This document shows positions 1 through 33,594 of a stretch of 64,000 bases of DNA, in pieces. Location: IMG/VR virus record IMGVR_UViG_3300048580_000163, positions 1-64,000 of that record. One strand, 5' to 3'. The position numbers were made by a program, and so were the translations under genes. Source of the stretch: an uncultured virus (IMG/VR IMGVR_UViG_3300048580_000163). Taxonomy: Duplodnaviria; Heunggongvirae; Uroviricota; Caudoviricetes. The notes beneath the pieces were generated by a model, which was not told the DNA's origin, ran no database searches, and saw only the letters and a program-made list of their open reading frames with translations. Within the stretch, counting starts at the first letter, position 1. Each line of letters begins with the position of its first letter.

Positions 1-638
1 ACGTGGTTTTGTATTCTTTGTACTGCTTTATCGTAGTACTCTTTATCCAATTCACAACAAGTCAATTCAAATCCGTAATCGTGGCAAGCTATTGCAATAC
101 TTCCTGAACCTAAATGTGTGTCAAGTATTTTATCGTTTTCTTTAGCGTATTTATCTAACAACCATTTGTAAAGTGCTACTGGTTTTTGTGTTGGGTGTAT
201 TCTTGTTTCTTTATTACTCATATCGTGCTGAATCATTCCGTGCCAAGATATATTTACAAAGTCTAATTTATTTAACCAACTAACCCAAGCTAATTCTCCT
301 GTGCTATAAGTAGGCATTGTTACATTCTTATGCCAATAAATCATTCCGCCAACTAAACCAAAATAATTAGCACCCCAAACAATCTGTTTTTTTGATACTC
401 TTTTTAATTCATCAAAATATTCATCTGTGGGAATATCTGAATCCCATAATTGAGAACCGTATTTTTTAGATTTTGTTGCTGATTTTTTAGTTTGCATTTT
501 ATCTGTACTATTTTTAACATCTGCATCAATTCCATAAGGTGGGTCTACAATAGCTAAATCAAAATAGTTATCAGGATAACGTGACATCAAAAGCATATTG
601 TCCTCGTTCGTTATTGTTATTTTATCTGTTATTTGCAT
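1..638 (-). CDS. DNA N6/N4 methyltransferase (beta class), 3' end runs off window
   Basis: Manual translation from ATG at 638: MQITDKITITNEDNM...IVDPPYG...HPTQKP...DTHLGSGSIAIAC; absent from ORF track because no stop in window. Confidence 0.9.
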   Translation of the reverse strand, partial: MQITDKITITNEDNMLLMSRYPDNYFDLAIVDPPYGIDADVKNSTDKMQTKKSATKSKKYGSQLWDSDIPTDEYFDELKRVSKKQIVWGANYFGLVGGMIYWHKNVTMPTYSTGELAWVSWLNKLDFVNISWHGMIQHDMSNKETRIHPTQKPVALYKWLLDKYAKENDKILDTHLGSGSIAIACHDYGFELTCCELDKEYYDKAVQRIQNH

Positions 639-737
639 TTAATATTTTTTTATATAGTTCGTTTACCGATTCTTTATTGCAACCTCTTTTATAGTAGAAA
701 TTAATTACTCTTTTAATTCTTTGTAGGTTTGTTTGTT

Positions 738-947
738 TCATAATCTATTTTTAATATGTTCTACAATTTTTTTAGCCTCTCCTTCTTTTAACGGAATATT
801 AAATAAGCTATTGTGGTAAGTCTCTAAAATTTCAATAGCGTAATCGTCTGCTATTTGTTCGCATTGTTTTGCGTATCTTCCAGCCTCTCCATCTGTATTA
901 ATACTTACTTTAGGTTTAAACTTTTCTCTTAATGTCATAACGTACAT
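738..947 (-). CDS. Small phage protein with EQIADDYAI module
   Basis: ORF track; module shared with 5371..5592 and 58507..58752. Confidence 0.6.
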   Translation of the reverse strand: MYVMTLREKFKPKVSINTDGEAGRYAKQCEQIADDYAIEILETYHNSLFNIPLKEGEAKKIVEHIKNRL

Positions 948-1066
948 GTTTATTTTTTATGTGATTCATTTCTTTTGTTTTCTCTAAAACTTCTTTAGCT
1001 TTTAAAGTAGTTTCTTTTTGAATTTCGTAGGATGTAGGGATTCGCTTTCCTACTAAAACTATGCTT

Positions 1067-1333
1067 TTACGCTTGGATAATTTCGACATTAATCTTGTAA
1101 TTTAATTTTTTACACGCTTTTTGCAAAGTTTCAAACGAACAAACTACTTGATTATTTAAAATATGGTTTAAATGTGAGTAGCTGATTTCTGTTTCTCGAG
1201 CAAATTCTCTTTGGCTTATTCCTTCTTTTTTGAAGATTTCTAATAATTGTTTTGTAGTCGGAATTTTTGATAATTCGCCAACCATTTGTAAAGAACAAAT
1301 TAAATCTTGTGAGTAAAAGCTTTTGTAATCCAC
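1067..1333 (-). CDS. XRE-type HTH DNA-binding protein (start possibly 1285)
   Basis: GISQREFARETEISYSHLNHILNN...ETLQKAC pattern. Confidence 0.8.
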   Translation of the reverse strand: MDYKSFYSQDLICSLQMVGELSKIPTTKQLLEIFKKEGISQREFARETEISYSHLNHILNNQVVCSFETLQKACKKLNYKINVEIIQA

Positions 1334-1539
1334 ATTGAAGCATTTTCAATATCTGTCATTGCTAATGATTTCAATCTTCCGTGTTCACTTCCATTTTGTT
1401 CAAGAGCATCAATTCTATTTATGACTTTTGCAAGTTCATATTTCAACTTTAAATGCTCACTACATTCATTGGTCAAGATGTCATCAAAATTAATTCTCAA
1501 TCTTTTTTCTCCTAACGATAATTCTCTTTTTAATTCCAT
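1300..1539 (-). CDS. Putative Acb2/Tad1-like helical-hairpin nucleotide sponge (anti-defence)
   Basis: LGEKRLRINF...RLKSLAMTDIENASMWITKAFT resembles the Acb2-like hairpin; paralog at 17206..17448. Confidence 0.55.
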   Translation of the reverse strand: MELKRELSLGEKRLRINFDDILTNECSEHLKLKYELAKVINRIDALEQNGSEHGRLKSLAMTDIENASMWITKAFTHKI

Positions 1540-1547
1540 AATATTTA

Positions 1548-1578
1548 TAGCATTTTACCTTTCAATCGGGTTTTAATT
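1548..1578 (-). promoter_or_regulatory. Conserved 31-nt leader motif, copy 1
   Basis: AATTAAAACCCGATTGAAAGGTAAAATGCTA, 8 nt before ATG; 27/31 identical to 17457..17487. Confidence 0.7.
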
Positions 1579-1709
1579 TTCATCTTTAAAAAACATTAAT
1601 ACTTTGTGAGTTTTTGCACAATAAACATAAGTTCCAAATCCTCGTGAGCCAAAGCCATAATCAAAATATACTCTTTGTCCTAACATAATTTATATTTAAA
1701 AGCACCATC

Positions 1710-1845
1710 GCACAACAGCGTGTTTATTCAATTGTGGCATAAGGTTTAATTCAATGTTCATTTTGTACTCTTGTTTTCTTTTTGCTTAATCGAAAGGCTA
1801 TTGTGTGTCACACCACGCTGAAATTATAGCGGGCAAACGTTATAT
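1710..1845 (+). repeat. attC-like site 1 (degenerate/chimeric arms)
   Basis: GCACAAC-A ... CAAAC-GTTATAT; inner arms pair only partly. Confidence 0.65.
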
Positions 1846-1851
1846 AATAGC

Positions 1852-2118
1852 TTACTCAACTAACTGCTCAAAGTTATCTTTGAAATATTGTTCAGAAACT
1901 AACCACTGGTCAAAGTGGTTTTTAGGGTTTCTTGAAATCATATCTCCAATTTTAGGACTTCCGTTGTTTTTATCTGCATCAGAAATAGATACATTATAAC
2001 CAAATGGGTATTCAGATATATGAATAAATCCGTGATTATTAAACACATTAATATCTACTTCTGTTACTTCTCTCATTTCTGCAATTTGACTTCTTCTGAA
2101 TTGTTTAAAATTTTTCAT
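1852..2118 (-). CDS. Cassette A cargo: small phage protein (start 2118 or 2154)
   Basis: MKNFKQFRRSQIAEMR...GSPKIGDMISRNPKNHFDQWLV; stop abuts the cassette arm. Confidence 0.75.
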   Translation of the reverse strand: MKNFKQFRRSQIAEMREVTEVDINVFNNHGFIHISEYPFGYNVSISDADKNNGSPKIGDMISRNPKNHFDQWLVSEQYFKDNFEQLVE

Positions 2119-2142
2119 AATATTTGTGAATATAAAGCCATC

Positions 2143-2274
2143 ATATAACAGCATATTACCGATATGGCTTGGCTTTGGTTAATCCGAAATGTGTCGGCTC
2201 ACTTTTTGTTTGTTGTTTATTTGTTTTCGTATGTGTTTAAATACGCCACATCGTTAATATGCGGAACGTTAGCA
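2143..2274 (+). repeat. attC-like site 2
   Basis: ATATAAC-A-GCATATTACCGATATGGC ... GCCACATCGTTAATATGC-GGAAC-GTTAGCA. Confidence 0.85.
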
Positions 2275-2445
2275 AACAGTTTGTTTGTATTGTCCGCAAT
2301 TCAAACAACCGTATGTGCTACATCTGTGTACCTCACATTCAATAAATTTTCTGTTAAGCAAACAAACCGATTTGCTAACATCAGGTATATGCAATTTTTG
2401 CTTTCTACCTGTAAATAATTCTTCTAATTTTCTAAGTGTTATCAT
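2269..2445 (-). CDS. Cassette B cargo: 58-aa Cys-rich protein starting inside site 3
   Basis: Manual translation MITLRKLEELFTGRKQKLHIPDVSKSVCLLNRKFIECEVHRCSTYGCLNCGQYKQTVC; stop is the TTA of GTTA. Confidence 0.65.
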   Translation of the reverse strand: MITLRKLEELFTGRKQKLHIPDVSKSVCLLNRKFIECEVHRCSTYGCLNCGQYKQTVC

Positions 2446-2493
2446 TTTATTTAATTTTAGTTTAAAACTGCATATACCTGAGTGCCGTTAGCA
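2373..2493 (+). repeat. attC-like site 3
   Basis: TGCTAAC-A-TCAGGTATATGCAATTTT ... AAAACTGCATATACCTGA-GTGCC-GTTAGCA. Confidence 0.85.
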
Positions 2494-2499
2494 GTAATA

Positions 2500-3483
2500 C
2501 TACATTCCATCTCCGAATGAAGTTACTACGTTAAATTCTTTTTCTTTTCTTTTTTCTTCCACCCTCTTTAAAGAAATATTAAAATACTTTTTGGTATTAT
2601 CTATTCCAATAAAGTTTCGGTTTAAATTTATACAAGCAATTCCACTTGAACAACTACCCATTGTGTTATCTAATACAATTTCATTCTCGTTTGAGTATGT
2701 CTTTATCAAAAATTCCATCAACGGTATAGGTTTTTGAGTTGGATGTAAGCCATTTTCTCTGTTATACCTCAATATGCTTTTTGGATAACCTGTTTTGTCT
2801 TGTATGTATGTTTCTCTTTTACTCTCACTTGATAAATGTCCAAGTGTTCCTGCTTTACCTTTGTTTGATAAAATCAATTCAGTATCATCAAGTTTAAGGT
2901 TATATGTAATTTTTTTTACAGTTGAAAGTATTTCATTGTACTTATTTTCAATTCCAAATAAATCACATATTTTAGTCCATTGTTTTTCAGTTGGTAATTG
3001 GGAACCATTCATTTTATTTGTAACCCAACCTGTCATTCCACCTGTTCTTGAAAGTTCTAATTTAGAAACATCAATTTGTTTCAAGTTAAGTCGTTTCATA
3101 TTTTCAATCATAATATCAGCAAACTCCATATTCGGTGTTTCATTATAAAATACTGATATGGTTTCGTGTATTTTCAATGGTTGATAATTTACTAATTGAA
3201 AGTTCCCTGCATTGTTCTTTTCCCAAATCCAATCATATTTATACCAATCTAAATTAGAAGTTCGCAATAATGATGAAAATGGTTCTGAACCAAATAAAAC
3301 AATCACACCTTTATCTTTAATAATTCTTTCATATTGTTCCCAAAGTTTATCAAAAGGTATAATTATATCCCAAACACAAGAAGTCGTACCATAAGGCAAA
3401 TCACAGCAAATAAAGTCAATACTTTTATCAGGTATTAATTTCATTTGTTCTATTGTATCTCCGTATCTTAAATCTATTGTCAT
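2500..3483 (-). CDS. Cassette C cargo: DNA N6/N4 methyltransferase with inserted HTH-like domain
   Basis: DLPY motif IV, HPTQKP, DNTMGS motif I; helical insert at about aa 119-181. Confidence 0.9.
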   Translation of the reverse strand: MTIDLRYGDTIEQMKLIPDKSIDFICCDLPYGTTSCVWDIIIPFDKLWEQYERIIKDKGVIVLFGSEPFSSLLRTSNLDWYKYDWIWEKNNAGNFQLVNYQPLKIHETISVFYNETPNMEFADIMIENMKRLNLKQIDVSKLELSRTGGMTGWVTNKMNGSQLPTEKQWTKICDLFGIENKYNEILSTVKKITYNLKLDDTELILSNKGKAGTLGHLSSESKRETYIQDKTGYPKSILRYNRENGLHPTQKPIPLMEFLIKTYSNENEIVLDNTMGSCSSGIACINLNRNFIGIDNTKKYFNISLKRVEEKRKEKEFNVVTSFGDGM

Positions 3484-3574
3484 AATTTTATTTTAATATT
3501 TTTCCACCGCACAAAAAAGAAAAGAAAAAGGTTTCGTTCTTCGATTGAGTATTTGTGGTTTAAATCCGTACTAC

Positions 3575-3668
3575 TGCTAACAGCGTATATAAGAAATGGC
3601 ACAGAAACATTTGTTATTAATTTCAACATTCTGCAAGTACCACTTCTCATATACACAAAACGTTATAA
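3575..3668 (+). repeat. attC-like site 4
   Basis: TGCTAAC-A-GCGTATATAAGAAATGGCAC ... GTACCACTTCTCATATACAC-AAAAC-GTTATAA. Confidence 0.85.
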
Positions 3669-3675
3669 GAAATAG

Positions 3676-3897
3676 CTACGATTCGTTTTTATAATCAGGT
3701 TTAAACTTTTTATTATAATAAATATCTGCATCACAGTTATTTTCAAACCCATCATTAAAAGCTTCTGTTATTTGAATCATTTCCATTTCTTTGGCTTTGT
3801 TTACAATATGTATATTATATTTTGGATGAAATTCATATCCATTTTTATTTTGATTTTCAATATAATCTTCTAACCATTCTACTGCTGTTTGTTTCAT
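3676..3897 (-). CDS. Cassette D cargo: MKQTAVEWL-type small protein
   Basis: ORF track; paralog of 4010..4243. Confidence 0.7.
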   Translation of the reverse strand: MKQTAVEWLEDYIENQNKNGYEFHPKYNIHIVNKAKEMEMIQITEAFNDGFENNCDADIYYNKKFKPDYKNES

Positions 3898-4009
3898 CTT
3901 ATTTGTTAAATGTTTTTTTAATTGTTATTGTAATTCCACCATGATATAAAAAAGCCCAAGCCAATACTATCAATGCAAACCCTGCTAATGCTAAAAATAA
4001 ATCCATATC

Positions 4010-4243
4010 TTATTTCTTTTTAAATTTTGACATAATCTCATCAAACTTTTTACCACTTTGAGGGTTTGGATTGCCAATATTATCAAGAGTCCAATTAACT
4101 ATTTCGTTGGCAATCAATTCCACCTCCACGTCGCTAAATCCTTTTTGTTCCTTTTCCATTTCTTTGGCTTGTTCAAAATCATATTGATTTAAACTTATGT
4201 TGTTCTTGTACCTGAATTCTAACCATTCTACTGCTGTTTTCAT
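4010..4243 (-). CDS. Cassette D cargo: MKTAVEWL-type small protein
   Basis: ORF track; shares TAVEWLE and AKEME motifs with 3676..3897. Confidence 0.7.
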   Translation of the reverse strand: MKTAVEWLEFRYKNNISLNQYDFEQAKEMEKEQKGFSDVEVELIANEIVNWTLDNIGNPNPQSGKKFDEIMSKFKKK

Positions 4244-4246
4244 TTC

Positions 4247-5374
4247 TTATTTATTTTTAAATTTTTCTAAAAAATATTTTGCCGTTTCTTTTGAAACAGA
4301 ACCTTCTTGATTAAATTCTTCATACATAGATAAAAATTGAATTAAGTCAATTATTTCTTCCTCACTATACATTTTATTGTCTTGTTCTTGTTGCCATTTA
4401 GCACCTGCTTCAATACCTTCTAAATATTCAGTAGTGCAAGTTCCATAGTAAGGTTGAGAATTAATAAACTCTTCAAGTGTTTCTTGTTTAGGTTCTTCTT
4501 TTGGAATATAATCTTTTCCCAGCCAAACTGTAACTTTTTTACCATCAATAAAATCTTCGTGAAAATACTCTTGGTGTTCTTCATGAAACATTACTTCTTG
4601 ATTATTTGGATTTACAGACTTTTCCAAACTTTGTGTAAATTTTCTATTGAAATAATCATCTTCATCTGTTGCGTATGGAAATATAGTTTCTTCATCAAAT
4701 CTACCTTGTGAATATGCTTCTTTTATATTATCTTCTTCCTTTTGTAACCAAAAAGAAATATCCTCTTTTTTAAAAATAGTTTTTACAGAATTTAAACTTC
4801 TATTATTTACTAATTCAATTAATTCCATAACTAAACTATTACCATAATCTCTTGCTTTTTGTTTAGTTTCTTTTGATGTTTCAGACATTATTCTCTCTTT
4901 AGTTGATTGTTTTACTTCTTCTTTTGGAATGATGATGTCATACATATTTTCGTAATAACTTGGTTCATCATCCACGAATCCCGCTATTAATGATTCAATA
5001 TCAACAAACTCACAAGTAGGATTCTTAACAAACCATTCTAAAAACTCATCATCAATAGCTTGTACACCATCTTTTATTAAGTCTTGGTCTGTTGTTAAGA
5101 TGATTTTTTCACAAGCATTTAATACTTCAGTAACTCCATCTTGAAATCTAATTATACCTATATTTGATTTAATTTCTACTACTTTATGGACTAATTCTTC
5201 AGAACATAAACACCAATCTCCATCTTTAATTTCTTCATCATTAGTAATGTAGATGTTTTGATACTGTTCTTCATCCTGAATAGGTAATATTTCTTTACAT
5301 AAATGAAATTTGTTAGTAAAGAATTTAACTAACCTACTTGGTTGAGGTGTTGGTAATATGTATATGTTTTTCAT
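4247..5374 (-). CDS. Cassette D cargo: mosaic acidic hypothetical protein
   Basis: 375-aa ORF with recurrent IPKEE modules. Confidence 0.75.
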   Translation of the reverse strand: MKNIYILPTPQPSRLVKFFTNKFHLCKEILPIQDEEQYQNIYITNDEEIKDGDWCLCSEELVHKVVEIKSNIGIIRFQDGVTEVLNACEKIILTTDQDLIKDGVQAIDDEFLEWFVKNPTCEFVDIESLIAGFVDDEPSYYENMYDIIIPKEEVKQSTKERIMSETSKETKQKARDYGNSLVMELIELVNNRSLNSVKTIFKKEDISFWLQKEEDNIKEAYSQGRFDEETIFPYATDEDDYFNRKFTQSLEKSVNPNNQEVMFHEEHQEYFHEDFIDGKKVTVWLGKDYIPKEEPKQETLEEFINSQPYYGTCTTEYLEGIEAGAKWQQEQDNKMYSEEEIIDLIQFLSMYEEFNQEGSVSKETAKYFLEKFKNK

Positions 5375-5592
5375 AATTCTTTTTTAAATATTTCTAATAG
5401 TTCTTTTGAAGTTTTGCCGATATATTTTTTATCCATTATTGAACTTTTACTAATGTACCAATTTAAAAAATCAATAGCGTAATCGTCTGCTATTTGTTCT
5501 AATTCTATTGCTGTATCTAAATCTATATTTAAAGTTGCAGTTGTGTTTTTTTGACTTATTTTAAGTCTTTCAAACTCTTCTTTTAATTTCAT
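5371..5592 (-). CDS. Cassette D cargo: EQIADDYAI-module protein
   Basis: ORF track; ATGA overlap with next gene. Confidence 0.7.
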   Translation of the reverse strand: MKLKEEFERLKISQKNTTATLNIDLDTAIELEQIADDYAIDFLNWYISKSSIMDKKYIGKTSKELLEIFKKEL

Positions 5593-5621
5593 AATATTTA
5601 GTTTTAATTACCCGCTACTTC

Positions 5622-5699
5622 TTATAACAGGTGTTTGTAAATACCAGCCGAAAATAAAATGCGTGTAGGCTGGCATCTACAAGCACCGAAACGTTATTT
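5622..5699 (+). repeat. attC-like site 5 (right end of array)
   Basis: TTATAAC-A-GGTGTTTGTAAATACCAGCC ... GGCTGGCATCTACAAGCACC-GAAAC-GTTATTT. Confidence 0.85.
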
Positions 5700-5861
5700 C
5701 AATTGACTACTTATTAGTTCATAGTAAGCATCACTCTCATTCCAATCCTTTATAAGTGATTGCTTTATTACTTCAAGTCTACCAACTAAAAAAGTATTCT
5801 CTAATTGTTCTGCAATATACATTAGTTTATCTAATTCTGCAATAATTTCTACTTTATTCAT
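5694..5861 (-). CDS. 55-aa hypothetical protein whose stop codon lies in the array junction
   Basis: Manual translation MNKVEIIAELDKLMY...YYELISSQLK; TAA is the TTA of GTTA at 5693. Confidence 0.65.
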   Translation of the reverse strand: MNKVEIIAELDKLMYIAEQLENTFLVGRLEVIKQSLIKDWNESDAYYELISSQLK

Positions 5862-5864
5862 ATT

Positions 5865-6050
5865 TTAAAATAATTTATCATACATTTCTTCCTTTAACTC
5901 AATACAATCTACTTCATTCATTATTGATAATATATCTGTACCATTGTAATAAACTGAATTAAGCACTATCTCTGGTCTTAACTCTGGATCATCATCTATA
6001 GTTTTGTAGTATACATTAACTATTTCACCTCTGTATTTAAAGTGTTCCAT
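5865..6050 (-). CDS. Hypothetical protein
   Basis: ORF track, packed in early operon. Confidence 0.6.
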   Translation of the reverse strand: MEHFKYRGEIVNVYYKTIDDDPELRPEIVLNSVYYNGTDILSIMNEVDCIELKEEMYDKLF

Positions 6051-6245
6051 ATCTTATTTATCTTTAAATTGTCTTAAGGTATTTCTTTAGTTGTTTAATG
6101 CTCAGGAATTCAAATCTAATATCTTCTGTCTCATACAATACAAAGCCACTGCCATCTGAGAATAGTTGTATCATATTAATATCTCCACTCACTTTATTTA
6201 ATTTCTCTAATTTTTTAAGTATTTTTTTCATCTTATTTATCTTCT

Positions 6246-6593
6246 TTAAATTAATTTAGCTACTTCTTCTACACTTACAATAGTGTACCCTTGATTCTCT
6301 GCCATCTTTCTCCAGTAATTCTTAGCCTTAATATCTAAAGCCTCGCAAATATCTGTAACACCATCGAATACAATCTCCTTGCCTTTAGGAGATAATACAG
6401 TAATCATCTTAGATACCCTACTACTCTTACCTACTAAATCTTTTGGTCTTGTCTTATTGTTAACCCTTACATACTCAACACCTTCAAAATCATCTTGAGT
6501 AAATTTATTGTAGTCCTTGTAGTTTAGTTTGTTTAGGTGGTGATTCCTTAATATCTTAGCCACCTCAAATAATGTGAATTTCTTTACTTCCAT
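6246..6593 (-). CDS. Hypothetical protein, possible NUMOD1-like C-terminus
   Basis: KEIVFDGVTDICEALDIK. Confidence 0.55.
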   Translation of the reverse strand: MEVKKFTLFEVAKILRNHHLNKLNYKDYNKFTQDDFEGVEYVRVNNKTRPKDLVGKSSRVSKMITVLSPKGKEIVFDGVTDICEALDIKAKNYWRKMAENQGYTIVSVEEVAKLI

Positions 6594-6614
6594 TTTACGT
6601 TATTATTTTGTTTC

Positions 6615-6818
6615 TTAAATTACTTCCCAATCGCCATTTATTATATGGCAATTTTTAAATCTACCTAAGGATAGTTTCCCCTTATCATTAAGGAAGGTAA
6701 AGCCGTACTGATTATTCCATATAACATCGTACGCCTTACCTCTTGTTATAATACCCTTAACTATTTGGTTTCGTATATCTATAGTACACCTAACCTTCTT
6801 CATCTTCTTCAAACTCAC
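6615..6818 (-). CDS. Hypothetical SH3-like small protein
   Basis: KVRC...ITRGKAYDVI...NDKG. Confidence 0.55.
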   Translation of the reverse strand: MSLKKMKKVRCTIDIRNQIVKGIITRGKAYDVIWNNQYGFTFLNDKGKLSLGRFKNCHIINGDWEVI

Positions 6819-7211
6819 AATGCTCTAAGCAGTCTGCACAAAGTTCATTAAATATGTGGTGTCTACCTGCACCACAGCAATTACTATATTCTTCCATATC
6901 TTATCTCTATTTAGCGCCTCTCACTCTCATTAGTTTAAGACTTCGTTTAAATCTACGTTATATATTACACTTGCTTGTAGTGTTAAGGATTCTAAATCAA
7001 GGCAGAGAAGTTCAAACCAAGTATTATCACTCGGTTCAAACAATCTCATTTGCCAAAATTCATCTACTCTATTTACTACTATTAATCTTTGGTGGTTTGT
7101 CCTTACCATACATTATTTTTCTAATGGTTATTAATCCGAATAACGACTCCTTACGCCCTATCTTATTGTTCTTATCATCAAAGATTGTTGTCTCTCTTAT
7201 AAGTAATTGTA

Positions 7212-7940
7212 TCATACAGTCTCGACTTCATTCTCTATGACCTCCATATCAGCATCTATAAGACCATCTAAGCGTTTTAATATAGTTTCTGAGGTATACA
7301 CTACACTTGAATCCCAATAGTCCTCCATAGAGTCTATATATCCTTCCCTTAAATCATCTTCAACCTCACTTGAATCTCTGTATTCTTGTAAGTATTCGTG
7401 AATACCACCACTATATTCTGCGGTCTTAAATAACTTTGCATCTGTATAGCCGCCTCTAGCATCAGCACCATTGTGTATTTGAATTAAGTAGTAGGTATCT
7501 CCATCAATTTCAAGTCTACTGCCTTGTAATATCTGTGATAGATCTGAGTCTCCATTGTATGTATTGAAGGTGTACTCTACATTAACCTCGTAATTATTTT
7601 GTAGCCACTCGGCTGCTCTATTTGATACGCCATATATAGACTCTCCAGGAAGTTCACCTTCCCAATCTGCTGGATTATTGTTACGTCTATTAAACTTCTC
7701 GCATACATCATCTAATTCAAGACCACATAAGTAATGGAATACAGATACGTTTCTGTATATATCATTGTACTTCATATCGAATTGGTATGATTCTTCATGC
7801 TCATTCATAAAGTCCTTGATTGATTTCTTTTGGTTACGTTGCCAACCTCTACCATTTACACCTCCTGAGTCTAAGAAGTGAGTGCCTGTGTTTTGAGTTA
7901 ATAAGTTATAAACCAATCTTTGTACTGCATTTGTTTTCAT
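7212..7940 (-). CDS. Acidic early protein
   Basis: 242 aa; HFLDSGG and QIHNGADARGGYT motifs. Confidence 0.7.
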   Translation of the reverse strand: MKTNAVQRLVYNLLTQNTGTHFLDSGGVNGRGWQRNQKKSIKDFMNEHEESYQFDMKYNDIYRNVSVFHYLCGLELDDVCEKFNRRNNNPADWEGELPGESIYGVSNRAAEWLQNNYEVNVEYTFNTYNGDSDLSQILQGSRLEIDGDTYYLIQIHNGADARGGYTDAKLFKTAEYSGGIHEYLQEYRDSSEVEDDLREGYIDSMEDYWDSSVVYTSETILKRLDGLIDADMEVIENEVETV

Positions 7941-7972
7941 AATTGTATAAGTTTTAAAGTTATTATTTTAAT

Positions 7973-8584
7973 TTAGTATATGTTTCCATCTTCTGTGAAT
8001 TCGTATTGATTTGATTCAAGTGACTCTAATATATACTCATCTGATGTTAGGTGAGTATATTCTTTTTCTAATGTACTATATAAATCAGCACACAAGTCCA
8101 CATATAACTCCTCTACAAAATTCTCGAAGTCATTTGAAAAACTTTCTATCCATTGATATAGTGGTCTATCCCAATTCAAGTCTCCGTTATCTACTTCCCA
8201 CCATATAGTATGATCACAACTTTTTTCGTGGTAGTAAAGTCCACGTTGTACCCCTTTACCAGATACTGATACGTTATTTCTAAGCCACCCTTTACGCATT
8301 GGTGATAAGTCAAGACCATCTATAAATATATCTTTAAGCCTATCTGAAATTGATGTGTATTTAAACATAGCTCCATCGCCTTGACTCCAAAAACCACTGA
8401 AGTATATTTTACCTATACCGAAATACTCATCGTTGCGTTCCTTGAAGTCTTCATATATAAAATCCCACCAATCAAAATTTACATTTGTATCTCTGTATTT
8501 CTCTATAACCTTCTCAAGTAATTCTTTGTCGTTCTTTATATCATCTATTGAATATACTTTTACTTCTTCTATTGCTGTTCTCAT
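7973..8584 (-). CDS. Acidic early protein
   Basis: 203 aa; FSGFWSQGDGA and acidic C-terminus. Confidence 0.7.
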   Translation of the reverse strand: MRTAIEEVKVYSIDDIKNDKELLEKVIEKYRDTNVNFDWWDFIYEDFKERNDEYFGIGKIYFSGFWSQGDGAMFKYTSISDRLKDIFIDGLDLSPMRKGWLRNNVSVSGKGVQRGLYYHEKSCDHTIWWEVDNGDLNWDRPLYQWIESFSNDFENFVEELYVDLCADLYSTLEKEYTHLTSDEYILESLESNQYEFTEDGNIY

Positions 8585-8596
8585 CTCTATAAGTTT

Positions 8597-9022
8597 TTAA
8601 ATTCTACCGTAATAAGTTTGTCCTTGATATTCTACCTCTGTGTAGTCAACCTTTACATTGTTTGCTGTTGCTTCCCAATCAATTTCTATCCACGAAGGGA
8701 AGTCTTTTGATATATAACCGCAGTCTTTTAGTAGGTCTTCTACATATTCCTCCCAATAGTCTTCTGAAACCAGAGTACAACCATAGTCAAACTCACTACC
8801 TATTGCATCTTCTATCTTGTTTATCTCCTCTATATGCTCCAATTCATCTTCCCAATCTTCTTTCCAGGATTGTATCTCTTCCTCTTCAAATAATATATCA
8901 TCGAAACACTCTGTTCTATCTTCGTAGTGTTCAAAGGTTTCCAAGAATGAATCTAAAATAGATTGTTTTAATTCGTCTCTCTTCTCTATTAGGTCTCTTG
9001 TGTCAATAATATCTTGTCTCAT
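8597..9022 (-). CDS. Highly acidic protein, ArdA-like anti-restriction candidate
   Basis: Very D/E-rich; C-terminal WIEIDWEATANNV resembles the ArdA YIDYEAIARDL end. Confidence 0.55.
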   Translation of the reverse strand: MRQDIIDTRDLIEKRDELKQSILDSFLETFEHYEDRTECFDDILFEEEEIQSWKEDWEDELEHIEEINKIEDAIGSEFDYGCTLVSEDYWEEYVEDLLKDCGYISKDFPSWIEIDWEATANNVKVDYTEVEYQGQTYYGRI

Positions 9023-9118
9023 AATTTTATAATTTTATATTTGTTTAATTTACCAACGTGTTTCTTTTGGGCAGTTAGCTGCCAGTTCTCTTAATGCTTT
9101 TAATAGTTTACTCATATC

Positions 9119-9316
9119 TTAGTCAAAGTTTATAAATATTTCTGATTCTTCTACCTCTGTGGTCATATCGTAGTTACATTTCTTACAGAACACACCATCT
9201 ACATAAGAGTTTTGATTCTTTGCGTGTATCATATTATCTTCTTCATCATAGTAGGCTTTCCAACTTAATGATTCAGTTATAATAAAGTCTTTGCTTTTAC
9301 ATTTTGGACATTCCAT
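9119..9316 (-). CDS. Zn-ribbon protein
   Basis: CPKC and CKKC. Confidence 0.65.
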   Translation of the reverse strand: MECPKCKSKDFIITESLSWKAYYDEEDNMIHAKNQNSYVDGVFCKKCNYDMTTEVEESEIFINFD

Positions 9317-9323
9317 ATCTACT

Positions 9324-9506
9324 TTAAAATTTAAAGACCACTTTATTATATAGCCTCTGATTCAACAATTCTTTTGCTTTGGTATATGATATACCTTCTT
9401 TATTCATGACGTCTGTAATGGCTTCTGAATATACTCTACGTTTGTGTTCTAAGTGTTCGACTACTTGCTGTACATTTACTCTGCCTGATTTGATTCGTTG
9501 TCTCAT
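9324..9506 (-). CDS. Hypothetical protein
   Basis: ORF track. Confidence 0.55.
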   Translation of the reverse strand: MRQRIKSGRVNVQQVVEHLEHKRRVYSEAITDVMNKEGISYTKAKELLNQRLYNKVVFKF

Positions 9507-9509
9507 ATC

Positions 9510-9749
9510 TTAATCAAAATTAAATTCTCTAATTACTTTTATACTCTTATCTGGACTTGTACTAATTAATTTAGTTACGTTATACCCTTGCGAGGTGTAG
9601 TTTCTGCGTGCAGTTTCACTTCCTCCAAGCCTTCTAAACCATTTTAAGGTATTTGCGTCTACAATATTATTGTATTGCTTTAAATCAATAGTTTTTACTT
9701 CTATTGTTTTAGTTCCGTTCTCTGTTCGGGTTTCAGTTAGTTGTATCAT
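9510..9749 (-). CDS. Hypothetical protein
   Basis: ORF track; WFRRLGGSE. Confidence 0.65.
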   Translation of the reverse strand: MIQLTETRTENGTKTIEVKTIDLKQYNNIVDANTLKWFRRLGGSETARRNYTSQGYNVTKLISTSPDKSIKVIREFNFD

Positions 9750-10375
9750 ATACTATTATTTTTTGATTCTAAATTCTTTATACATTAAGAAGCCTACAAC
9801 TAATAAGCAGGCTGTCATTATAATTTGGTTACTTGTGTGCATTCCTATAGATGCAATAATGATGAGTGTGATTGCTTTCATTTTAAAATATTTTATTATT
9901 GGTTAAACTTATTTTTACTTTGTTCCGTGTCTAAAACGAATTAGATTAAAAGTCTATTACTTCACGGATTTATATAAGTAAGGCTACTACAATTTAACGT
10001 AATAGCCTTATATATATTTTTATTATCATTTGCACATTAAGACCGCCTGCAATTAGCGGTTTGACTTCATATTATATGAAGCAACTGAATCGAATAGCAT
10101 CAATACTATTTTCATTTTAAACGCCACAAATATATAAAATACGTGATTTTGTGAAGGCATCATATACGCCGCCGTACATGTGTTATACCTAGTCAAACTA
10201 CACTTTTAAAAAATGTAATTAAGTCAATACAATATTTCAAAGTACAATATTAATACCATCTTAAAATAAAGATATAATGTATTAATACAAAGGAATAACA
10301 AAATAGTATTCCTATATTTGAGAGGTTAACGGTTTCGCTCCGTTTTAATATTTCAAAAAACCTCTTCTTAAATCA

Positions 10376-10777
10376 CTATTTTAAAGTAACTTTTAAAAAT
10401 TTGTTGAATGCTAAACCAACGCTATAAACGGTAAAACGTTGTTTATCTATACATTTTTTATTTATGTACTCTAAAATGGTATTAAATTCTAAACCCTTAC
10501 TAATTACGTTAACATCAATACTTTTGTACTGGCTGTCGTTTGGTATTTGTTTTTTAAAGCGGTTTAATGCTCCCGATAAACTAAAATTTTCTTGTTTATC
10601 TAAATTGTTAACGTTTAATAAAGAAGAATGAAACGAAACTTTTTTAGTTTTTTCCTTTACTACTTTTACTTTTATATCTTTTAATAAGTTTACATTTGAA
10701 ACGATTAAATTTTCGGTTCTTGAATTAGCTTTTTTAGTTGCTACTTTTGTCCTGTTGTTTTTTACTGTTGCTTTCAT
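10376..10777 (-). CDS. Basic first gene of the early arm
   Basis: Lys-rich ORF directly downstream of tandem promoters. Confidence 0.65.
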   Translation of the reverse strand: MKATVKNNRTKVATKKANSRTENLIVSNVNLLKDIKVKVVKEKTKKVSFHSSLLNVNNLDKQENFSLSGALNRFKKQIPNDSQYKSIDVNVISKGLEFNTILEYINKKCIDKQRFTVYSVGLAFNKFLKVTLK

Positions 10778-10831
10778 AATTGATAAATTTTAAATTGTTA
10801 TACTTTTTTTAGTTGTTTTAATTTGATGATG

Positions 10832-10983
10832 TAAAGATATATAAAGTTTTTTAATTTACAATAACTTTAACATAATTTTAACATATTGTATAAATTACTT
10901 CTTTACTTCATTATTACATTGCAAATATAGATATTTAGTTTTAGATAACAATTACTTTAACAAAACTTTAACACTTTTTAACT
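10832..10983 (-). promoter_or_regulatory. Tandem early promoters with TTAACA direct repeats
   Basis: TATCTTTA at 10832-10839 and TATATTTG at 10922-10929 (minus); TTAACA at 10867, 10878, 10957, 10968. Confidence 0.65.
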
Positions 10984-11499
10984 TGATTATTATTAAAACC
11001 TTTGATTTTCAGGTACTTACATTTTATGCAATTTTAAGATTTTATAATTTAATTATATATTAACTTTTAGAATAGTTGTAATTTAGATTAAAATTAGTTT
11101 AGTGATTTGAGTTAGTTGCACCGACAAACGACCCATAAACAACAAAAAAATAAAACCTTTGTACCTTGGATTCAAAAAATGGAACTATAAAACAACAATT
11201 AAAATACATGTAATGTTATTGCGTTAAATAAGTAGTCTAAAAAATACCATCTAATTAATACAGCCTAAAAAGGTAAAAACTTTGAAGGAAATATTTTGAA
11301 AGGAGACCCCCGTACCGAATGAGGAAGAGTTTTGGTGGGGAGGGGTGTGATCGTTGGGCGGGGTTATAATCCCAACAACAGACCATACTAACTAAAACAT
11401 ACAAGATACACCTTAGCCATTGATATAGGTTATATTATAGAACGATTAAGTGGTATGTTGTATACTTATACAAGGGTGTAATTGCATTGTATATTTTTG

Positions 11500-11507
11500 T
11501 ATATTTG
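11500..11507 (+). promoter_or_regulatory. Bacteroidota -7 promoter element
   Basis: TATATTTG upstream of ATG 11529. Confidence 0.55.
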
Positions 11508-11528
11508 TGTATTAAAATAAAGTATATA

Positions 11529-12440
11529 ATGGAATTAATTGATAGGTTAAGTGAATGTTTGGTATCTAACAAATTAATACTTACAAGTAGTGAGATAGAT
11601 TTAGATGAGGCAGAAAGAATAGGAACAGAAGTTTATAGTAGTAATGGAACATTAGCAGGGTATTACATAGATGATGGATATTACAACTATAGTGCATACT
11701 GCAATGTATCGAGAGGTAACTTTGCTAATGCATTTAGGGTTGCTTCTGTTGTGGCATTTTTGAATATAGATAAATCAGATGAGGTTTTATTTGAGTATAT
11801 GGACCTTGTATGTAAAACTTATTTTGATACCGATTCTTTTCATATTGATAGAAATATAATTCTAAAGAACATAAAGAAAGTAAAGAGTGGTTTATATGAA
11901 GTAAGACCAATAATAAAAAAATACTTTTGGGTAAGACCATACACTAATATTGGCGGTGAAGATAAAGTTATAGAGGGTGTATTGTATGAGGGTAAAAGAA
12001 AGCTTGTTATGAATCAATATAATAAAAGTAAAAGAATACAAACATTGAATAAAATAGAGAATGCTGTAAATCTATTAATAGAGGAAGGTAATAAAGGGAA
12101 TACATTCTTAACTATATCCGACATAGAGGAATTAAGTGGTATACCAAAGAAAACAATAAGTAATGTATATGCATTATTTAAGAATGATATAGATAAATAT
12201 AATACTGATGTATTCAAGACAAGTATATATGCTGAATTCGTAAAGATGTCTAATGTATTTACCATAAGCTCATCTATAGTAAAATTCAAAGAAGAAATGG
12301 AAACAAGGCTTACAAAGAGAAAGGTAGCTGGAAAGTCTAATCTACATATAAATACAGTATATAATTTATGGTTAGAAGACGAGGTACAAGATTCTTTAGA
12401 TGAGTATAATAATTGGTTAAGAGAATTTAAAAACAAATAA
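11529..12440 (+). CDS. Hypothetical protein with two HTH-like segments
   Basis: LTISDIEELSGIPKKTI and LTKRKVAGKSNLHINTV; ATG 11529 preferred to 11487. Confidence 0.7.
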   Translation: MELIDRLSECLVSNKLILTSSEIDLDEAERIGTEVYSSNGTLAGYYIDDGYYNYSAYCNVSRGNFANAFRVASVVAFLNIDKSDEVLFEYMDLVCKTYFDTDSFHIDRNIILKNIKKVKSGLYEVRPIIKKYFWVRPYTNIGGEDKVIEGVLYEGKRKLVMNQYNKSKRIQTLNKIENAVNLLIEEGNKGNTFLTISDIEELSGIPKKTISNVYALFKNDIDKYNTDVFKTSIYAEFVKMSNVFTISSSIVKFKEEMETRLTKRKVAGKSNLHINTVYNLWLEDEVQDSLDEYNNWLREFKNK

Positions 12441-17492: not shown

Positions 17493-17744
17493 TTACTCTA
17501 CAATCACTACATTCTCATACCCCATAACCAAGTACTCGATTCCTTGATAATTGATAGGGTATGTTCTGTGTCTATCAAACCAAATGGTCTCTCCAACATT
17601 AACCTTATCTACATTCTCTCCAATCTCAATTACCTCACCTCTGTGAAACTTAATGTCTTGACCATCTCCTAAATAAAGACCGCTACTTGTCTTCACGTCT
17701 TCCTTAATTTCCTTAACTAAAATGTTACTTAATACTACCTTCAT
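17493..17744 (-). CDS. groES: Co-chaperonin GroES
   Basis: KTSSGLYL mobile loop, GEVIEIG, VNVGE; adjacent to groEL. Confidence 0.9.
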   Translation of the reverse strand: MKVVLSNILVKEIKEDVKTSSGLYLGDGQDIKFHRGEVIEIGENVDKVNVGETIWFDRHRTYPINYQGIEYLVMGYENVVIVE

Positions 17745-19306
17745 TAGTTACTTCTTTTATGTGTTATTGTGGTATTGGTTAATAAAACTGTTGTAGCTAC
17801 ACTTGCAGCATTCTCTAAGGCTAACCTAATAACCTTTGAAGGATCTATAATTCCTTTCTCAAACATATCTACAATTTCGTAATCCTTAACATCATATCCG
17901 TAGTTATCTTTTTGTGCTAATAAGTTTCCTTCAATCGAATCCAACTTAACCCCTGCATTACTTAAAATAGTGCGCATAGGAGCTTGAATTGACTCAAGTA
18001 GACACTTATATCCTTTTGATACAGGAACGAGCTTTAAAGAGGCGTTATATAGCGCTAAACCTCCTCCTACAACTACACCTTCAGATATCGCACTCTTAAC
18101 CGCATTGATTGCGTCATCTACTCTATCAATCTTCTCCTTAATTTCTACTTCAGTTGTTCCTCCGACTTTAATTACAGAAACACCACAAGCTAACTTTGAA
18201 ATACGGTCTCTTAAGTATTCCTTTTCTAAATTGTTGTTTGAGTTCTTGATTACTTTATTCAGCTCTTCAATCTTTGATTGAACCCTATCTGCATTAGGTT
18301 TCTCGTTAAAGAATAATACAGTGTCATCTTTAGTTACAGTCAATCTACTACATTTACCAAGCAATTCATTCATATCATACCCTTCAATGTTTGTAGAGGT
18401 ATCTAAATCAATAATTAAACCACCTGTAGCTAAAGAAATATCTGTCAAGTAATCTCTGCGCTTCTCACCTATACTTGGCGGTATAATTGTAGCCACTTTA
18501 AGACCGTTCTTTTTATTAGCATATAACACCTTCATAACCTCAAACTCCATTTCAGATATGATAAGTAGCTCTTTCTTTGCGTGGTGACAAAACTCTATAA
18601 CAGGTAGTAATTCTGTAATATTCTGAAACCTTCTGTTAGATAGTAAGATAAATGGGTTGTTATTAAACTCAATTGATCTATTCTCTGGTTTATTTACAAA
18701 CCCCTCAAATTCATATCCTCTTGCGATTGGCATACCGTCAATAAAGTCCAAATAGGTTTCTGAACTTTCTGATTGCTCGTAAGATACAACACCATTCTTT
18801 CCAGCAGATATAAAGGCTTTTGCAATTATTTCTCCTAATTCAGAATCATTATTTGCAGATATTCTTGCAACATCAAATAAATAAGAATCATCAACTTCTT
18901 TAGATGTACTCTTGATATAATCAACAACTTCTTTTACAGCAAAGTCAATACCATTCTTTAAATCGATTGCTGATTCACCTTTCTTTAAATACTTCTGGCT
19001 ATTGTCGATAATTGCCTTTGTAAGTACAGCTGTGCCAGTTGTACCGTCACCTGCTTCATTGACTGTTTTTCTACAAGCTTGCTTTACAAATTCACAGCCT
19101 AAACTTTCTGTTGCATCTTCAAGGAAAATACTTTCCGCTACTGATACACCATCCTTTGTTACGATTGGTAGTCCTCCTGGACTCTCAATTAATACTGTTC
19201 TACCTCTATATCCCATAGTTGTAGCAACCGCATCACAAACCGTTGAGATACCTTTAATTAAAGGCTCTTTTGCTTCTTGATTAAATTTAACTTCTTTTAT
19301 AACCAT
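17744..19306 (-). CDS. groEL: Chaperonin GroEL
   Basis: TKDGVSVA, AGDGTT, GVVVGGG, GIIDP. Confidence 0.97.
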   Translation of the reverse strand: MVIKEVKFNQEAKEPLIKGISTVCDAVATTMGYRGRTVLIESPGGLPIVTKDGVSVAESIFLEDATESLGCEFVKQACRKTVNEAGDGTTGTAVLTKAIIDNSQKYLKKGESAIDLKNGIDFAVKEVVDYIKSTSKEVDDSYLFDVARISANNDSELGEIIAKAFISAGKNGVVSYEQSESSETYLDFIDGMPIARGYEFEGFVNKPENRSIEFNNNPFILLSNRRFQNITELLPVIEFCHHAKKELLIISEMEFEVMKVLYANKKNGLKVATIIPPSIGEKRRDYLTDISLATGGLIIDLDTSTNIEGYDMNELLGKCSRLTVTKDDTVLFFNEKPNADRVQSKIEELNKVIKNSNNNLEKEYLRDRISKLACGVSVIKVGGTTEVEIKEKIDRVDDAINAVKSAISEGVVVGGGLALYNASLKLVPVSKGYKCLLESIQAPMRTILSNAGVKLDSIEGNLLAQKDNYGYDVKDYEIVDMFEKGIIDPSKVIRLALENAASVATTVLLTNTTITHKRSN

Positions 19307-29445: not shown

Positions 29446-30348
29446 ATGATAGGAATATACAAGATAACTTCTCCGTCTGGGAAAATATATATAGGTCAAA
29501 GTACAAATATAAACAGCAGAATAAGAAAATACAGAAATAACAACTGTAAAAATCAAGTTAGATTGTATAATTCTATCTTAAGTTATGGATTTAAAAATCA
29601 TAGTTTTGATATTATTGAAGAGTGCTTTATAAACGAATTAAACGAAAAGGAAAGGTTTTGGCAAGATCATTATAACTCCACAGGAAATGAAGGATTGAAT
29701 TGTAAACTTACAGAAACAGATTCTCTTAGTGGTAAGCATTCAGAAGAAACAAAGTCAAAAATAGGATTTTCTAATAAAGGTAAAAAAAGAAGCGCAGAGC
29801 AAATAGAGAATATGTCTATTGTAATGAAGGGTAAATTTTCTGGGGAAAAACATCCAATGTATGGTAAAAATCATACTGAAGAAACTAAAGATAAAATATC
29901 TGAATCAAAAAAAGGCAATAAAAATATGCTTGGCAAAAATCATTCAGACGAATCTAAAGAGAAAATATCTAATTCACTTAAAGGATTTAAGCATACAGAA
30001 GAAAGTAAAATAAAAATATCAAAAGGATTAGTAGGTAGAAAAGTATCTATTGAAACTAGAAAGAAAATATCAGAAAGCAATAAAGGAACTGTATTTTCAA
30101 AAGAAAGAAGGGAGAAAATATCCAACGCATTAAAAGGAAGGGTGTTATCAAAAGAGTGCTTAGAAAAAAGAAGCAAAAGTATATCTGGGGAAAATAATTA
30201 CAAATCAAAATTAGTCTTAGATTTAGATAGTGGAATATATTATTATTGCGTAAGAGAAGCTGCTGTGGCTAGAAATATAAATATATCTACACTGAATAAT
30301 TACTTAAGTGGAAATAGACCAAATAAAACAAGTCTAATATATGTTTAA
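29446..30348 (+). CDS. GIY-YIG homing endonuclease with NUMOD3 repeats
   Basis: GIYKITSPSGKIYIGQS; repeated HSEETK.KIS; own TATATTTG at 29426. Confidence 0.92.
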   Translation: MIGIYKITSPSGKIYIGQSTNINSRIRKYRNNNCKNQVRLYNSILSYGFKNHSFDIIEECFINELNEKERFWQDHYNSTGNEGLNCKLTETDSLSGKHSEETKSKIGFSNKGKKRSAEQIENMSIVMKGKFSGEKHPMYGKNHTEETKDKISESKKGNKNMLGKNHSDESKEKISNSLKGFKHTEESKIKISKGLVGRKVSIETRKKISESNKGTVFSKERREKISNALKGRVLSKECLEKRSKSISGENNYKSKLVLDLDSGIYYYCVREAAVARNINISTLNNYLSGNRPNKTSLIYV

Positions 30349-32875: not shown

Positions 32876-32906
32876 AAAAGAGAGGTGTAATGCCTCTCTT
32901 TTTTTT
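32876..32906. terminator. Bidirectional intrinsic terminator
   Basis: AAAAGAGAGGT/GCCTCTCTTTT plus T-run. Confidence 0.8.
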
Positions 32907-33594
32907 ATAGATACTCAAGACCTGTGTTGTTTACCTTTGTTTTCCCATTTAATAGGCATTTTACTTTTGAGTATGTAAATCCAAAATCTTCAGCGGCTTC
33001 TCTTATGCAGTCATATACCTTGCCATTGTTTGAGTTTATTATTTTTCTACTCATAGGATTATCTTCTCCTTTTTTAGATATTGTTTTCTGTATATCTGAC
33101 ATTTTTTTTCTAATCTCATCAGAGTGTTTTTTGCCATAGTAAGGATTTTTTTCTCCTTTAAATTTACCTGTATTTGATAATCTTATTTTTTCTCTTACTT
33201 CTTCTGAAGTTTTTTTCCCTTTATTTGGCGATACTGTACCATACATTGGATTTTTTTCTCCTTTTTTACTTTTACTTAATCTTATTTTAGTTTCTTCTGA
33301 ATGACTAAAACCTGCGCATCCTTCTCCTCCATCAGTTAAATTAGATAATGTTCCGTTTTTATCTATAATCTTGCCATATAGTTTTATAAATTCAATTTCT
33401 TTTTCAACAGCAAAATCCCAAGAAACGTCTTCAAAAAGTATTTCTACTTCATATTCTGTTTTAGACACAATACTATTCCATATTTTATTTCTACAAGATT
33501 TGCTTTTTGCTCTATGAAGCCCTGACCTTGTTCCTATGCCAATATAAAACACTTGATTTGTATCTTTTCGTATATGTCTATAAACGTATGCCAT
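32905..33594 (-). CDS. GIY-YIG-like homing endonuclease with NUMOD3 repeats
   Basis: YVYRH...FYIGIG, NLTDGGEG, HSEETK. Confidence 0.88.
   Translation of the reverse strand: MAYVYRHIRKDTNQVFYIGIGTRSGLHRAKSKSCRNKIWNSIVSKTEYEVEILFEDVSWDFAVEKEIEFIKLYGKIIDKNGTLSNLTDGGEGCAGFSHSEETKIRLSKSKKGEKNPMYGTVSPNKGKKTSEEVREKIRLSNTGKFKGEKNPYYGKKHSDEIRKKMSDIQKTISKKGEDNPMSRKIINSNNGKVYDCIREAAEDFGFTYSKVKCLLNGKTKVNNTGLEYL

Follow-up and report, generated by a model that had tools for sequence, protein, structure and literature searches.

Integrons are usually viewed as bacterial devices. In T4-type phages, intergenic stem-loop repeats of conserved sequence (PeSL) are reportedly the places at which homologous recombination shuffles small genes within hyperplastic regions. 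Here we analyse a 64,000-nucleotide stretch of DNA from an uncultured Caudoviricetes virus (bases 1–64000 of the 68,141-bp record IMGVR_UViG_3300048580_000163; hereafter the window), in which positions 1714–5695 likely hold an orphan, that is recombinase-less, array of four gene cassettes belonging to an integron-like gene-capture system of Flavobacteriia/Bacteroidota phages and their hosts. The nearest published counterparts are the clusters of attC sites lacking integron integrases (CALINs) that Qi et al. described in virulent phages in 2023, including the methyltransferase-bearing Polaribacter phage P12002L (Front Microbiol; PMC9892861). In the portions of that paper drawn on here, P12002L has two sites, described as divergent in direction, one of which underwent IntI1-mediated recombination, and the sites are regarded as classical IntI substrates (PMC9892861). 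Phage attC clusters are already in print, so the phenomenon is not unprecedented. The text and one supplement of the paper name no Flavobacterium phage, and its abstract, section 3.4 and one supplement contain no own-end signature, shuffling among relatives, antisense layout or phage recombinase (PMC9892861). The array described here resembles these phage CALINs, as portrayed there, in its integrase-less hairpin sites with a GTT core, its occurrence in virulent phages and its DNA methyltransferase cargo. A CALIN being defined by two or more neighbouring attC-type sites without an integrase in the vicinity, the five sites that we find within 4 kb, in a genome in which no integrase was found, fall under that definition.

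These five sites, S1 to S5, bound four units across 1714–5695. Each has the form x'-AAC, imperfect hairpin, GTT-y and lies between open reading frames (ORFs) of the minus strand; the AAC triplets start at 1714, 2147, 2377, 3579 and 5626, and the GTT triplets end at 1841, 2270, 2489, 3664 and 5695. Cassette A (1840–2268, minus strand) consists of an ORF at 1852–2154 (or from the ATG at 2118), with no match in Pfam or PHROG, and its own hairpin S2 (2147–2270). Cassette B (2269–2487, minus strand) is 219 bp long and pairs a Cys-rich 58-aa ORF (2269–2445), without a family match in Pfam/PHROG searches, with its own hairpin S3 (2377–2489), inside the loop of which the start ATG of the ORF falls. 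Cassette C (2488–3662, minus strand) carries an N6/N4 DNA methyltransferase at 2500–3483 (PF01555, 4.8e-24; phrog_67) and hairpin S4 (3579–3664). Cassette D (3663–5693, minus strand) is a multi-gene unit of ORFs at 3676–3897, 4010–4243, 4247–5374 and 5371–5592, without assigned function, and ends in hairpin S5 (5626–5695). Site S1 (1714–1841, plus strand) is a degenerate hairpin with a family-like left arm and an eroded right arm, and its GTT (1839–1841) starts cassette A. Since all genes run antisense to the sites, each hairpin precedes its own gene. Classical integrons have the ORF in sense with attC downstream, as does the Bacteroidota chromosomal integron L075, whereas here the genes are antisense and the hairpin is upstream of the gene.

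A first covariance model (R1) had nine seed sites, including S4 and S5 of the window. It found 107 sites in phages (12 sources; 209 kb, comprising the window phage and nine Muminvirus, Lillamyvirus or Hattifnattvirus phages), and all 107 lie on the strand opposite the genes. Another model (R3) was made from 123 sites in 27 viral loci other than the window, on an alignment made with R1 and hence with a model whose seeds included S4 and S5. Run over the window and L012 (69,141 bases, both strands, E ≤ 1), R3 returned exactly five matches, all on the plus strand, at 3573–3670 (1.2e-11), 2141–2276 (2.5e-11; R1 3.1e-4), 5620–5701 (6e-11), 2371–2495 (2e-10) and 1708–1847 (0.012, with several non-standard pairs). 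These are precisely the five places at which the first-pass annotation, made from the letters alone, had put hairpin sites delimiting four units, and the observation of sites, units and pairing ends is confirmed.

Across 51 distinct sites, compensatory changes occur in 18 of 20 inner pairs. TAAC/GTTA is invariant in all 51, an A·C mismatch is present in 50 and a T·G pair is conserved in 39. Pairing cells amount to 88.5% in real sites versus 61% in shuffled sites and 32–39% with slid partners, and the mean column identity is 55%, yet the stem is preserved by covariation. Classical integrons such as L075 have the same AAC...GTT cores and likewise maintain an imperfect hairpin through covariation. 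Rfam scans of window positions 1–12000 and of mymlan 1500–9000 gave no relevant family. Folding energy was rejected as a sufficient criterion, with only two or three of six sites better than shuffles. As a separate observation, the chromosomal integron attC sites of three Bacteroidota genomes (L075, L071 and L078) are nearly identical, with 87% mean column identity.

The left end of each unit was also said to be complementary to the unit's own right-hand AAC arm, better than to the arm that it faces, and this too was borne out. Own ends match at 12/14 positions in cassette A and 13/14 in both C and D; those of B match with one indel (12/17 ungapped). Own ends match at 10/14 or more beyond the triplet in 20 of 29 distinct units taken from 10 sources (mean 9.5), as against 2 of 48 facing arms (mean 5.4). 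Position 11, counted from the G, pairs in none of 22 cases, and in 21 of these there is an A on the left against the equivalent of a G on the right. With such a pattern, the hairpin of a circularised unit would gain an outer stem of GTTA plus 6 bp, a fixed mismatch and 3–4 bp. A cassette start complementary to its own R'' arm is likewise a property of classical integrons, from which the sites described here differ in an outer stem of 14–15 bp with a fixed mismatch.

Homologous units with the same ends occur in other contexts. The block 2487–3665, which is cassette C and its hairpin from one GTT to the next, is 93.2% identical over 1179 nt in L013 and 90.7% identical in L014, and L015 matches it at 93.1% over a part only (2656–3666). 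Both L013 and L015 are arrays of 7–9 methyltransferase genes with such sites in between. In mymlan6-1 the gene unit of cassette C alone is conserved (88%), with the exact bounds GTTAGCAGTAATAC...GTACTACTGCTAAC, and stands between different hairpins. The ends of cassette D recur in mymlan6-1 around a unit of 238 bp whose cargo is unrelated; in the comparisons of window D with mymlan U1 and of window A with snusmum U22, the end sequences are common and no similarity of cargo proteins was found. Public contigs include one of X9 whose homology begins at 2486 and an X8 joint, 3694 to 5380, that amounts to a shorter form of cassette D. Separately, L013 contains two TnpB (OrfB_IS605/Cas12f-like) genes, at 1150–2322 and 9136–10332, within or beside its methyltransferase cassette array; one of them lies just past the stop-codon (GTT) end of the cassette C copy, where no hairpin was found.

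Gene order is not fixed among relatives, and the breakpoints fall at the GTT core; with the homologous units described above, none of the three conditions that the annotation named as refuting its reading was borne out. Nine related isolates have stretches that are 97–100% identical in the cassette region, yet the order and content of their units differ, and Muminvirus-type phages differ by whole cassettes joined inside (A)AC/GTTA. Unit U7 stands to the left of hairpin h6 in 5/5 phages, h6 has six different right neighbours, and the three-gene unit U5 stands on either side of the methyltransferase unit U6, depending on the phage. In 25 of 26 pairwise phage comparisons in which one hairpin is followed by different right units, identity counted from the G stops after 4–5 letters; in 76 of 78 in which one unit is preceded by different hairpins, it stops after 4–7. 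Crossover at G/TT and co-inheritance of the site with its unit are as in classical integrons, bar AAC-side exceptions involving h3, U5 and U6. Readings of the hairpins as IS200/IS605-like hairpin insertions, or of the units as invertible segments, were dropped because hairpins are inherited with the neighbouring unit and all ORFs taken as genes are on one strand.

The annotation had inferred a host recombinase or one encoded outside the window, a point that holds, and recommended a search for a tyrosine recombinase beside matching host arrays. Pattern-scan matches in IMG/VR were used only where a covariance model confirmed them, since many of them are, by a rough estimate, due to chance. Among the matches listed, 23 IMG/VR contigs bear arrays; a tyrosine recombinase of ~270 aa is encoded in five and adjoins the array (1–1.5 kb) in three. 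With a 268-aa recombinase as query, relatives were found in 80 viral loci. A site is present in 49 of the 59 recombinase loci that have at least 1.5 kb of upstream DNA, the nearest being 152–2297 bp away, and 160 of 163 R1 matches at recombinase loci lie upstream of the recombinase gene on the opposite strand. At two loci a common conserved stretch beside the gene ends at GTTA, where the cassettes diverge. Related phages have in common with classical integrons that the array and a tyrosine recombinase diverge and that a conserved stretch resembles attI. Model R3, which derives from recombinase-adjacent arrays, matches S2–S5 at 1e-11 to 2e-10 and S1 at 0.012. One viral contig, L136, has two divergently oriented site arrays, at 4015–4976 (minus strand) and 6869–7662 (plus strand).

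The best scores of the ~267-aa recombinase are with XerA and XerC/D models, all under their cut-offs. It reaches 136–150 bits with TIGR02249, in two stretches and against a cut-off of 265, and is 26% identical to a Bacteroidota IntI, with gaps over IntI residues ~190–250. Unlike the integrases of classical integrons, therefore, the enzyme of related phages is short, lacks the IntI insertion and stays under the TIGR02249 cut-off. The recombinase cognate to these sites is probably of the short Xer-like kind and not a classical IntI. Homologues of the short enzyme that are 36–48% identical occur in 85 of 401 sampled Bacteroidota genomes, and R3 sites lie within 1.5 kb of the homologue at 8 of 20 bacterial loci examined. 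The recombinases in the metagenome-assembled genomes containing L013 and L015 were set aside as candidates; they are on other contigs, without adjacent sites.

We propose the following mechanism. On the plus strand a cassette reads G/TT-x, the reverse-strand gene or genes and x'-AAC, and then an imperfect hairpin of 64–125 nt. In a cassette circle x would pair with x' and lengthen the stem by GTTA and 6 bp, the fixed A·C mismatch and 3–4 bp. A tyrosine recombinase would then cut and exchange one folded strand at the conserved G/TT, and such strand exchange would excise, insert and reorder cassettes between phages infecting the same cell, or between a phage and its host. The most likely enzyme would be the ~267-aa Xer-like recombinase found beside the arrays of related phages. 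For the window phage the activity would have to come in trans, from a co-infecting phage, a homologue in the host or, conceivably, an integron integrase of the host. The sites, the permutation signature, the conservation of the block, the shuffling among relatives and the link of recombinase to array are observed; the chemistry, the circular intermediate, the enzyme acting on the window phage and any present activity of the array are what we infer.

Several results weigh against this interpretation. A search of the 68-kb genome of the window phage turned up no tyrosine recombinase, so the array is an orphan and would need an enzyme in trans; the recombinase gene that stands beside related arrays is absent from this genome, and, unlike classical integrons, the window phage has no IntI and no adjacent integrase with the IntI-specific insertion and attI. 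In five other phage records (four bearing arrays, and elemoA) no tyrosine recombinase was found either, no cassette site having been found in the 8.2 kb of elemoA scanned, and only five of the 23 array-bearing IMG/VR contigs listed encode one. Activity of this array is therefore conjectural. At bacterial loci (among L283–L302) the sites are downstream of the recombinase homologue and on the same strand, in contrast to the divergent upstream layout of the phages. S1 has an outer stem of merely 7 bp and was missed by R1 at E ≤ 1, and the fold energy is distinct from that of shuffles only for S3 (z −3.24) and S5 (−3.43), weakly for S4 (−1.68), and not for S2 (+0.17) or S1 (+0.78). End pairs of the type GTT..AAC matching at 12/14 or more are frequent genome-wide (36 in 68 kb), which makes genome-wide counts of such inverted repeats uninformative as stand-alone evidence; the significance of the own-end pairing therefore depends on the ends abutting the hairpins. 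At least two or three exchanges took place on the AAC side, h3 occurring with three different left units, and hairpins have been replaced (h3 or h10 follows U5, h7 or h29 follows U6, and the mymlan counterpart of cassette C comes with another hairpin), neither of which is predicted by a model with a single crossover point. No circle or precise-excision junction was seen in public contigs, which are short unitigs with many paralogous joints and so are not evidence of absence. Parts of the array may be frozen, given the eroded S1 and a paralogue of cassette A at 66.3 kb that has no right-hand site.

A rival reading is that ordinary attC sites form a classical CALIN, with host IntI alone moving the cassettes during infection. 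The AAC/GTT cores, the imperfect hairpin and the permutation signature are attC features, chromosomal attCs beside intI have the TAAC-A..GTTT..AAAC..GTTA layout too, and an IntI above the TIGR02249 cut-off is available in 113 of the 401 sampled Bacteroidota genomes. Qi et al. recombined P12002L_attC2 with IntI1, in the assay as given in the portions used here, although P12002L_attC1 failed in it (PMC9892861). P12002L has sites of the window family (R1 E 6.7e-6, 6.2e-5 and 1.1e-3) and methyltransferase DNA that is 71% identical to cassette C. Similarity between IntI-associated attCs and the phage sites is slight, however: chromosomal attCs reach E 0.086 at best with R1 and 7.7e-5 to 0.7 with R3, the better of the two, while a model (R2) made from 15 IntI-associated Bacteroidota chromosomal attCs, which stands in for standard attC models, has no match to the window sites at E ≤ 10 and a best match to any phage site of E 0.0056. 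The site family is tightly tied to a different recombinase without the IntI insert, its ORFs are antisense to the sites, the opposite of the chromosomal integron examined, and its fixed position-11 mismatch is not in the chromosomal sites, as judged by eye in two cassettes. We therefore regard IntI alone as an unlikely agent, against an integron-like system with its own short recombinase.

Less probable still is that the hairpins are expression signals only (terminators, RNase III-type processing sites or promoters) and that homologous or illegitimate recombination exchanges the modules, in the manner of the PeSL-mediated shuffling said to be documented in T4-type phages. All sites do fall in intergenic DNA that is transcribed, with a single orientation towards the genes, and the ORF B start codon within a hairpin loop would suit such a role; the phage also encodes an ERF annealing protein and a 5'-3' exonuclease beside the region. 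Small accessory phage genes shuffled at intergenic stem-loop elements are indeed common to PeSL and the array. Sites of the window family, unlike PeSL, are diverse in sequence and conserved in structure, averaging 55% identity yet covarying to preserve the stem, and no Rfam family matches them. The 4–7 nt of identity at their junctions do not suffice for homologous exchange, own ends that are complementary imply a joined (circular) form, and a dedicated, site-specific tyrosine recombinase flanks arrays of this family.

The integron-like cassette reading of the first-pass annotation is hence supported, with corrections. Shuffling, G/TT junctions and the exactly bounded block speak for it; it has to accommodate antisense genes, a degenerate S1, AAC-side exchanges, an enzyme that is probably Xer-like rather than IntI, and the existence of published precedents. 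Taken further, we lean towards a distinct gene-capture system, a phage-borne "integron" with a short Xer-type recombinase lacking the IntI domain, inverted cassettes and a site upstream of the gene that is able to supply expression signals. Such a system would circulate anti-restriction and accessory genes among elemo-like phages, Muminvirus-type phages, large phage contigs and Bacteroidota chromosomes, with orphan arrays serviced in trans. No phage array accompanied by a Xer-like recombinase is described in the literature searched, though more phages may stand in supplements, and the full form of the system appears to be unpublished in that literature. A term search of the paper describing the Muminvirus isolates gave no mention of hairpins, cassettes or inverted repeats.

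Integron logic would thereby extend to lytic phages, with DNA methyltransferases that probably counter host restriction. The identifiable cargo of the array is a DNA methyltransferase, and the array may plausibly serve as an exchangeable anti-restriction kit. For the Muminvirus isolates, the methyltransferase repertoire was tied to plating efficiency by their authors, in the part of the paper used here (PMC7077304), and turnover of cassettes would in consequence give the phages a direct way to change host range. If a recombinase devoid of the IntI insertion works on attC-like folded sites, this would bear on the evolution of integron recombination from Xer-type enzymes, and the system would offer a tractable phage-host setting for single-strand hairpin recombination.

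The window phage has a G+C content of ~30%, and at the DNA level it matches elemo-group Flavobacterium phages best. Its genome encodes a crAss-type muzzle domain, GroEL/GroES, and the ERF annealing protein and 5'-3' exonuclease, the genes for the last two of which adjoin the cassette region; all ORFs taken as genes in window 1–10,000 are on the minus strand. The junction with the conserved phage backbone (5690–5888) is marked by elemo homology beginning at the AACGTT of S5, and from 5690 onward the window is 94% identical to 68 elemo records. No hairpin was found in elemoA to the left of the junction matching window 5690. The array is part of an accessory island: elemoA links the homologues of 65484 and 5690 within 434 bp, and the equivalent stretch here is ~7 kb, spanning an inferred circular join from 68014 to 1223. 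The terminal 127 nt of the contig (genome 68015–68141) are 100% identical to window 1223–1349, and public contigs continue from genome end 68141 into window 1350–1959, with a joint that confirms the contig end running into 1223; the genome therefore closes at 68014 to 1223. Window 1–1222, including an N6/N4 methyltransferase, would then be an alternative branch, i.e. a population variant.

Some further features were observed in this genome. A second small array lies at 65815–66600 (L012 2815–3600), with a unit at 65815–66180 whose ends pair at 12/14 and a hairpin at 66178–66300 (R1 E 0.11; no R3 match). Next after that hairpin, at 66295–66598, is the paralogue of cassette A, 82% identical and without a right-hand site. 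Directly adjoining the main array, a minus-strand gene at 1300–1539 encodes a protein of 79 aa that matches the Acb2/Tad1 hairpin domain (PF24729, E 7.9e-9) and is a candidate sponge for nucleotides used in defence signalling. The phage GroES (PF00166) and GroEL-like (PF00118) genes are at 17493–19306 on the minus strand, and homing-endonuclease-like genes stand amid the late genes, one of GIY-YIG/NUMOD3 type at 29446–30348 (plus strand) and one of NUMOD3 type at 32905–33594 (minus strand).

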